The position numbers and the translations under genes are program-made. The notes under the pieces are model-generated. The model saw nothing but the letters and a program-made list of their open reading frames with translations. It did not search any database and had not been told where the DNA came from. From the NCBI RefSeq assembly GCF_053078305.1, contig NZ_CP166879.1: a stretch of DNA of 64,000 nucleotides. One strand, given 5' to 3'. Position 1 is the stretch's first letter, and each line of letters begins with the position of its first letter. Shown one piece after another: positions 8,330 through 8,762 of the stretch.

Positions 8330-8565
8330 TGGTTGCCTCCTTTGTGGATCTGCGCTGCGATGCACGAAAAAAAAAGACTCCCGCGTATGACTGTTAAGAG
8401 CTGGTGCGAACGCCGCGTTAAGAACGGCAGCATCACAGCCGTCATTGATATAGAGCGCAATTTTTTCTCCAGGCGCGCTTTGGCTTCCTGCAACTGCATA
8501 CCCCGGCACGCACGCGGGATATACTCAGCAATTTGAGCGATAGATTTTTCGTTCTGTTTAAACAT
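8326..8565 (-). CDS. Hypothetical prophage protein (79 aa)
   Basis: ORF ending in the GGAGG-containing junction that couples to the next gene. Confidence 0.4.
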   Translation of the reverse strand: MFKQNEKSIAQIAEYIPRACRGMQLQEAKARLEKKLRSISMTAVMLPFLTRRSHQLLTVIRGSLFFSCIAAQIHKGGNQ

Positions 8566-8762
8566 GCTTCACCTCGACAGGCTTGATGGTGTCGATCAGT
8601 AGTCGGCGGCGCGTATTTTCTGCAAAGTGGCGGCGTCCGGTTTCTTTGTGGTAAAACTCGTTTTTGTCGACGACCCACATCCGCTCCGTCTGGTGCAATT
8701 TTTTTTACCTGCGGACCGTCTTTGGTGATCACGATGCCGGTATGGGTTTTTACGATTGTCAT
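8558..8762 (-). pseudogene. Small prophage gene apparently disrupted at an A8 homopolymer (8699-8706)
   Basis: As read, the frame after the A-run gives an R/C/P-rich tail; with one A fewer it gives a plausible 66-aa protein whose stop overlaps the next start. Confidence 0.35.

Follow-up and report, generated by a model that had tools for sequence, protein, structure and literature searches.

The window, i.e. the whole stretch of 64,000 nucleotides that was analysed, carries a lambdoid prophage from its first base to about 20.6 kb, and beyond the prophage it continues in the E. coli chromosome, from yeeJ via the his operon to ugd. The prophage could be recognised by its DNA methyltransferase gene, a RusA-like gene, replication genes, an exonuclease gene and an integrase gene. 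No long ORF was seen in the first 980 bases of the window. Three phage-borne tRNA genes (Arg-TCT, Arg-TCG and one with a CAT anticodon) adjoin the methyltransferase gene, an arrangement resembling the one that precedes the toxin locus of lambdoid phages of the Stx type. The gene studied here, which codes for a protein of 67 amino acids in its intact form, sits in a nin-like accessory block downstream of the replication genes. It is preceded by the remnant of a phosphoadenosine-phosphosulfate (PAPS) reductase-family gene and followed by a gene of 79 codons and by an ead/Ea22-like gene; the coordinates of all these features are collected in Table 1.

Table 1. Features of the disrupted locus and other elements of the window mentioned in the text (coordinates are those of the window).
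Feature	Position	Strand	Remarks
tRNA genes (three)	982..1231	-	phage-borne
ead/Ea22-like gene	7985..8329	-	GTG start overlaps the TGA stop of the 79-aa gene
Downstream gene, PHROG 1344, 79 aa	8326..8565	-	two compensating tract changes
T9 tract of the downstream gene	8367..8375	-	T8 in 3/3 aligned homologs; +1, window-specific
A6 tract of the downstream gene	8461..8466	-	A7 in intact homologs; -1, common to Z1323MEC0001
ORF as the A8 allele encodes it	8442..8762	-	106 aa: true N-terminus plus 85-aa wrong-frame tail
Disrupted copy of the 67-aa gene, PHROG 1226	8558..8762	-	205 nt (intact: 204 nt)
Out-of-frame ORF, last 46 codons	8558..8698	-	
A8 homopolymer, frameshift site	8699..8706	-	wild-type A7 (codons GTA AAA AAA = V-K-K) plus one base
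PAPS reductase-family remnant	8759..8860	-	last ~102 nt of the gene; stop overlaps the ATG of the 67-aa gene
Terminator-like hairpin and T-run	14596..14619	+	
232-aa ORF	14648..15346		
Exonuclease gene	15823..18261		
Integrase gene	18523..19548		
A8 run, yeeA-sbmC	45314..45321		intergenic
A9 run, ugd-gnd	63934..63942		intergenic

The minus-strand ORF that starts with the ATG at 8762 begins MTIVKTHTGIVITKDGPQVKK, after which the A8 run follows and the reading continues in a long tail. The original prediction had placed the run on the minus strand at exactly the position where it was found in the window sequence, and its description of the tail as rich in Arg, Cys and Pro residues was also borne out: the tail begins after ...GPQVKK and crosses the start of the next gene. 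In the A8 allele the first 21 codons are in frame, and the last 46 codons persist as a separate, out-of-frame ORF. When one A is removed from the tract, the frame is open from 8698 to the TAA at 8558-8560. The product of this frame, MTIVKTHTGIVITKDGPQVKKLHQTERMWVVDKNEFYHKETGRRHFAENTRRRLLIDTIKPVEVKHV, is indeed a plausible protein as had been expected, with a length of 67 amino acids and not 66. The stop codon of the repaired gene overlaps the next start, again as expected, the TAA being within the ATGTTTAA overlap and the next ATG lying at 8563-8565.

The segment is common among E. coli prophages, phage-plasmids and Stx-type phages, and the gene is annotated as a 204-nt CDS with an A7 tract in strain Z1323MEC0001 (99.6% identical to the window segment), in phage Lyz12581Vzw and in strain CEC03102. 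These three records encode the repaired 67-aa sequence almost exactly. A scan of IMG/VR gave 337 relatives, of which 80 were retained, and all 80 retained loci matched residues 1-67 in one frame. The tract was exactly A7 in each of the 74 IMG/VR loci where the gene start was recognisable, over 11 local haplotypes. The comparison of tract lengths in homologous prophages, which had been proposed together with the original prediction, therefore gave A7 in the relatives and A8 in the window. The pN/pS value 3' of the tract, calculated for 49 distinct intact alleles, came to 0.15 for the A7 frame, against 2.05 for the frame of the A8 allele and 1.42 for the remaining one. Conservation of the A8 frame in the orthologues was looked for as well, and it was the A7 frame that was found to be conserved. 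Since the orthologues have a single ORF with A7 and the pN/pS values of the frames differ as stated, the coding frame is that of A7, and the window sequence is frameshifted. Three features by which a frameshifted pseudogene is recognised were found here, namely an uninterrupted frame in the orthologues, an indel whose length is not a multiple of three and purifying selection on the orthologue frame only. The A8 run thus splits a real small gene, as had been proposed: the orthologues have A7 in a single 204-nt ORF, and purifying selection acts on the frame of this ORF. In an annotation the locus should appear as one frameshifted copy of the 67-aa gene and not as a 106-aa ORF together with a 46-aa ORF.

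The repaired protein matched phrog_1226, a family annotated as function unknown, over positions 1-67 of 67 in a PHROG profile search (E=1.2e-41). There was no significant Pfam match for the 67-aa or the 79-aa protein, the DUF4734 match (E=0.028) being below the curated cut-off. A profile search of the PDB sequences gave no match for the 67-aa protein, and when its confident structural model was compared with the PDB by Foldseek nothing was obtained below E=1. The AlphaFold2 model of the repaired protein, built with 27 homologs, has a pLDDT of 90.7 and shows a predicted small, all-beta fold of four strands. Since the frameshift comes after residue 21, the 46 residues which would be lost include strands 3 and 4 of this model and most conserved residues. 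The A8 allele would be null, or nearly so.

The neighbouring genes are altered as well. The PAPS reductase-family gene is intact at 879 nt in Stx-type phages, where it lies directly 5' of the 67-aa gene, and its deletion is common to the window, Z1323MEC0001 and KY171. Within the remnant KY171 has 6 extra nucleotides. The 79-aa gene downstream of the A8 tract carries two tract changes of its own. The T9 run had been noticed previously in a nearby small ORF; the run and its location in the ORF were confirmed, and its coordinates had been given about 5 bases off (8372-8381). Since the -1 and the +1 change cancel each other, the length of this gene, both of its ends and its stop/start overlap are kept. 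However, about 31 central residues are scrambled in the 79-aa ORF, which reads LRSISMTAVMLPFLTRRSHQLLTVIRGSLFF where the homologs have IALYI[N/D]DGCDAAVLNAAFAPALN[S/C]HTRESFF. In Z1323MEC0001 the same gene is labelled 'frameshifted' by PGAP. The T9 change restores the original stop, and it may have restored translational coupling rather than the function of the protein. An ORF of normal length can conceal a scrambled middle, and the annotation of the 79-aa ORF should mark it as a compensated double frameshift despite its normal length.

The state of the two genes in near-identical prophages can be written as a series of three numbers, the lengths of the A-tract of the first gene, the A-tract of the second gene and the T-tract of the second gene. 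In this notation (7,7,8) stands for KY171, in which neither gene is disrupted, (7,6,8) for Z1323MEC0001 and (8,6,9) for the window. Within the two-gene block the three copies differ by one SNP besides the tract changes, and one SNP and two indels, A8 and T9, separate the window from Z1323MEC0001 over the 751-bp segment. Since the A6 tract is common to the window and to an independent finished assembly, Z1323MEC0001, the decay of the module predates the changes specific to the window.

Tract lengths were also counted in IMG/VR, using degenerate patterns bracketed by non-A bases. Five contigs with A8, four with A6 and at least 120 with A7 were found; with 5 A8 and 4 A6 among about 337 relatives, approx. 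97% of the copies are A7. One of the five A8 contigs, L086, had been considered as independent support for the (8,6,9) state and was rejected: it agrees with the window at 100% identity over 7,141 bases, almost certainly because both come from one genome. The haplotypes of the remaining four A8 contigs and of the four with A6 show 88-94% identity to the window where aligned, so these eight alleles arose independently.

Among the finished E. coli genomes the A8 allele had seemed to be absent, since no match of at least 99% was obtained at 647 places and the listed matches covered 61/62 bases. This result was overturned by a query matched to the haplotype and by the sequence of L215. With the haplotype-matched query an ungapped, A8-type match over 51 nt was obtained in 10 of 611 finished E. 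coli records, one of which was checked by sequence; strain 97-3250 is among these ten in two separate assemblies. In the record checked, O26 strain RM10386 (NZ_CP028126, I3U_RS33980), the tract is A8, the gene reads caggtAAAAAAAActtcacc and the PGAP annotation is 'frameshifted'. The same gene, the same tract, the same A7 to A8 change and the same 205-nt disrupted CDS are found there as in the window. However, the haplotype is different, with CTT and not TTG after the tract, and so is the prophage context, and unlike in the window, the genes on either side, for the PAPS reductase upstream and the 79-aa protein downstream, are both intact. Since the haplotype and the prophage context differ, the A8 of RM10386 arose independently. 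In the public annotation of other strains the A8 allele is already labelled 'frameshifted'.

The protein databases contain alleles in which a frameshift at the tract is compensated, and two of these were confirmed at the DNA level, from independent SRA runs. P0079, which was assembled from two SRA runs, combines A8 with the loss of one nucleotide at an A5 run that lies 36 nt further downstream; in P0051 an A5 tract goes together with the loss of one nucleotide, while both L088 (IMGVR_UViG_3300029165_000026) and P0113 have A8 and a 4-nt deletion. In the compensated alleles L088, L216/L217 (SRR6175470, SRR5665598) and L218 (ERR10499541) the compensation lies 36-100 nt downstream of the A-tract frameshift. 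The C-terminal half is in frame in the compensated alleles, which suggests that selection acts mainly on that half. The tract is a recurrent indel hotspot, at which the mutants are left broken or are returned to the original frame.

The A8 of the window is probably real, a slippage mutation that arose in an accessory module under decay. Strand slippage at the homopolymer during DNA replication would have turned A7 into A8, the extra A would make the ribosome read a non-coding frame once residue 21 is passed, and the allele could have been fixed because the module was already decaying and was not expressed in the lysogen. The extra base would then be in the DNA itself and not in the assembly alone, and the selection on the accessory module would be relaxed. 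A sequencing or assembly error, in which case the strain would truly have A7 (and T8) and the consensus would have over-called the two longest homopolymers of the segment, is unlikely but has to be taken seriously. Both differences specific to the window are +1 changes at runs of 7-8 bases and affect the two coding tracts that are longest in the region, a pattern which is also expected from homopolymer-biased sequencing error. They make up two of the three differences from Z1323MEC0001 in 751 bp, which is a high indel-to-SNP ratio. L086, the sole other record with (8,6,9), gives no independent confirmation for the reason mentioned above. Against such an error, identical A8 alleles are real in other lineages, and the adjacent A6, being common to an independent finished assembly, is inherited. 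T9 restores the frame lost at this inherited A6, and a second-site mutation that was selected or tolerated would account for this slightly better than a random miscall would.

The quality of the assembly could also be judged from the rest of the window. An exact full-length match of the A10 run at 61396 is absent from other genomes, which would be in line with over-called homopolymers. However, the A8 run of the yeeA-sbmC region and the A9 run of the ugd-gnd region are matched exactly by many independent genomes, thus 8- and 9-mers were called correctly by the assembly where this is checkable. When 25 kb of the chromosome was compared with strain G4/9 (98% identity), four indels were found, all of them intergenic and none in the approx. 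22 conserved genes, and the coding A7/T7 runs of the same 25 kb had no indel. These controls speak against a systematic miscalling of homopolymers and indirectly favour a correct call of the A8. All runs of at least 8 bases were longer in the window than in one compared reference; this was set aside as ascertainment bias and the exact-match tests were used instead. When the positions 39001-64000 of the window were compared with 5,426 complete E. coli genomes, the identity reached at most about 98%, thus the host belongs to a lineage, or to a close relative like Shigella, that is missing from this collection.

The original prediction had left three alternatives, a genuine frameshift pseudogene, a sequencing indel and a slippage-prone switch. 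While the first is favoured and the second keeps the limited probability discussed above, the third was not upheld. Functional slippage, i.e. a phase-variable switch or an A8 allele expressed via programmed transcriptional slippage or ribosomal frameshifting, is very improbable. The length of the tract does vary naturally (A5, A6, A7, A8), and the uninterrupted A7 is kept in 74 of 74 close homologs although nearby codons vary synonymously. However, with A7 so predominant, alleles of other lengths are rare in both directions, unlike in a contingency locus, where frequent polymorphism would be expected. The K-K pair was not found at the tract position in the distant family members from Klebsiella, Raoultella and Citrobacter (KTMKLH, QQKLLH, KRMKLH), i.e. 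the tract is absent from the more distant relatives. The shifted (-1) frame is without coding constraint, as its pN/pS value indicates, and the stop of the shifted-frame ORF varies between alleles. The compensated double frameshifts also argue against a switch, since in these selection restores the original frame and the alternative one is not used.

Contingency loci with homopolymeric tracts are known from Neisseria, Haemophilus and Campylobacter (see also the discussion in PMC1088944). The present case resembles them in having a coding mononucleotide tract in which a change of +/-1 silences the gene, with reversal or compensation being possible. It differs from them in that the tract is short and has one dominant length, the organism is proficient in mismatch repair and the gene is an early accessory gene of a phage; the genes at contingency loci are of the surface or restriction-modification type, unlike the 67-aa gene, and no sign of selected variability was seen here.

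As regards expression of the A8 allele by recoding, the wild-type A7 stands in the A_AAA_AAA register of a -1 slippery heptamer (GT A AAA AAA), which is a weak criterion alone. In this it is like the A_AAA_AAG-type heptamers of programmed -1 frameshifting in dnaX and IS elements (PMC5009743). Unlike at those sites, no conserved or constrained trans-frame (-1) ORF is present here, and the tract is missing in distant members of the family. For programmed transcriptional slippage a conserved run together with a two-ORF layout would be expected, and the homologs have A7 and a single ORF instead. Slippery runs typically consist of at least 9 A or T (PMC1088944, PMC6260861), and Baranov et al. treated 8 A as non-slippery as against 9 A (PMC1088944). 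In the experiments of Koscielniak et al. the E. coli RNA polymerase was without activity on fewer than 8 A, and deletion-type rescue was not detected on any tested poly(A) run (PMC6260861). Since the rescue of A8 would need the loss of one A in transcription, it would require precisely the event which was undetected in that study. The 'pseudo-pseudogenes' of Baranov et al. (2005, PMC1088944) are likewise due to a +1 change in a coding A-run of a strain-specific E. coli gene; however, in those cases 8 A became 9 A, where slippage turns productive, whereas here 7 became 8 and the rescue would need deletion slippage. It is also scarcely credible that the A7 tract of PHROG 1226 and the A7/T8 tracts of PHROG 1344 form a selected hypermutable module toggling both accessory genes, in which case the window would represent one 'off' state, possibly leaky via low-level slippage.

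The A8 tract is thus an ordinary homopolymer frameshift in a small conserved prophage gene. Its significance beyond the annotation is small. The case is biologically ordinary and concerns a small phage ORFan. In unselected prophage accessory genes a short homopolymer gains indels about as readily as the surrounding few hundred bases gain substitutions.

In the 64-kb window there are eight runs of at least 8 bases, of which only the A8 and the T9 described above are in conserved coding sequence, the other six being intergenic or non-coding. A T8 run had previously been reported at 14607-14614 in a small ORF. The run is real, but it lies at 14612-14619, about 5 bases away, and outside any such ORF. 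As a coding tract it was rejected, since it is the T-run at the end of a terminator-like hairpin, AACCGCGCTCAGGCGGTT. The hairpin stands just 5' of the 232-aa ORF. The intergenic A8 and A9 runs listed in Table 1 vary naturally in length within E. coli. For the A8 at 45314, approx. 1,500 of 5,418 E. coli genomes have an exact match over 66 nt, and in most of the others the run seems to be 1 base shorter.
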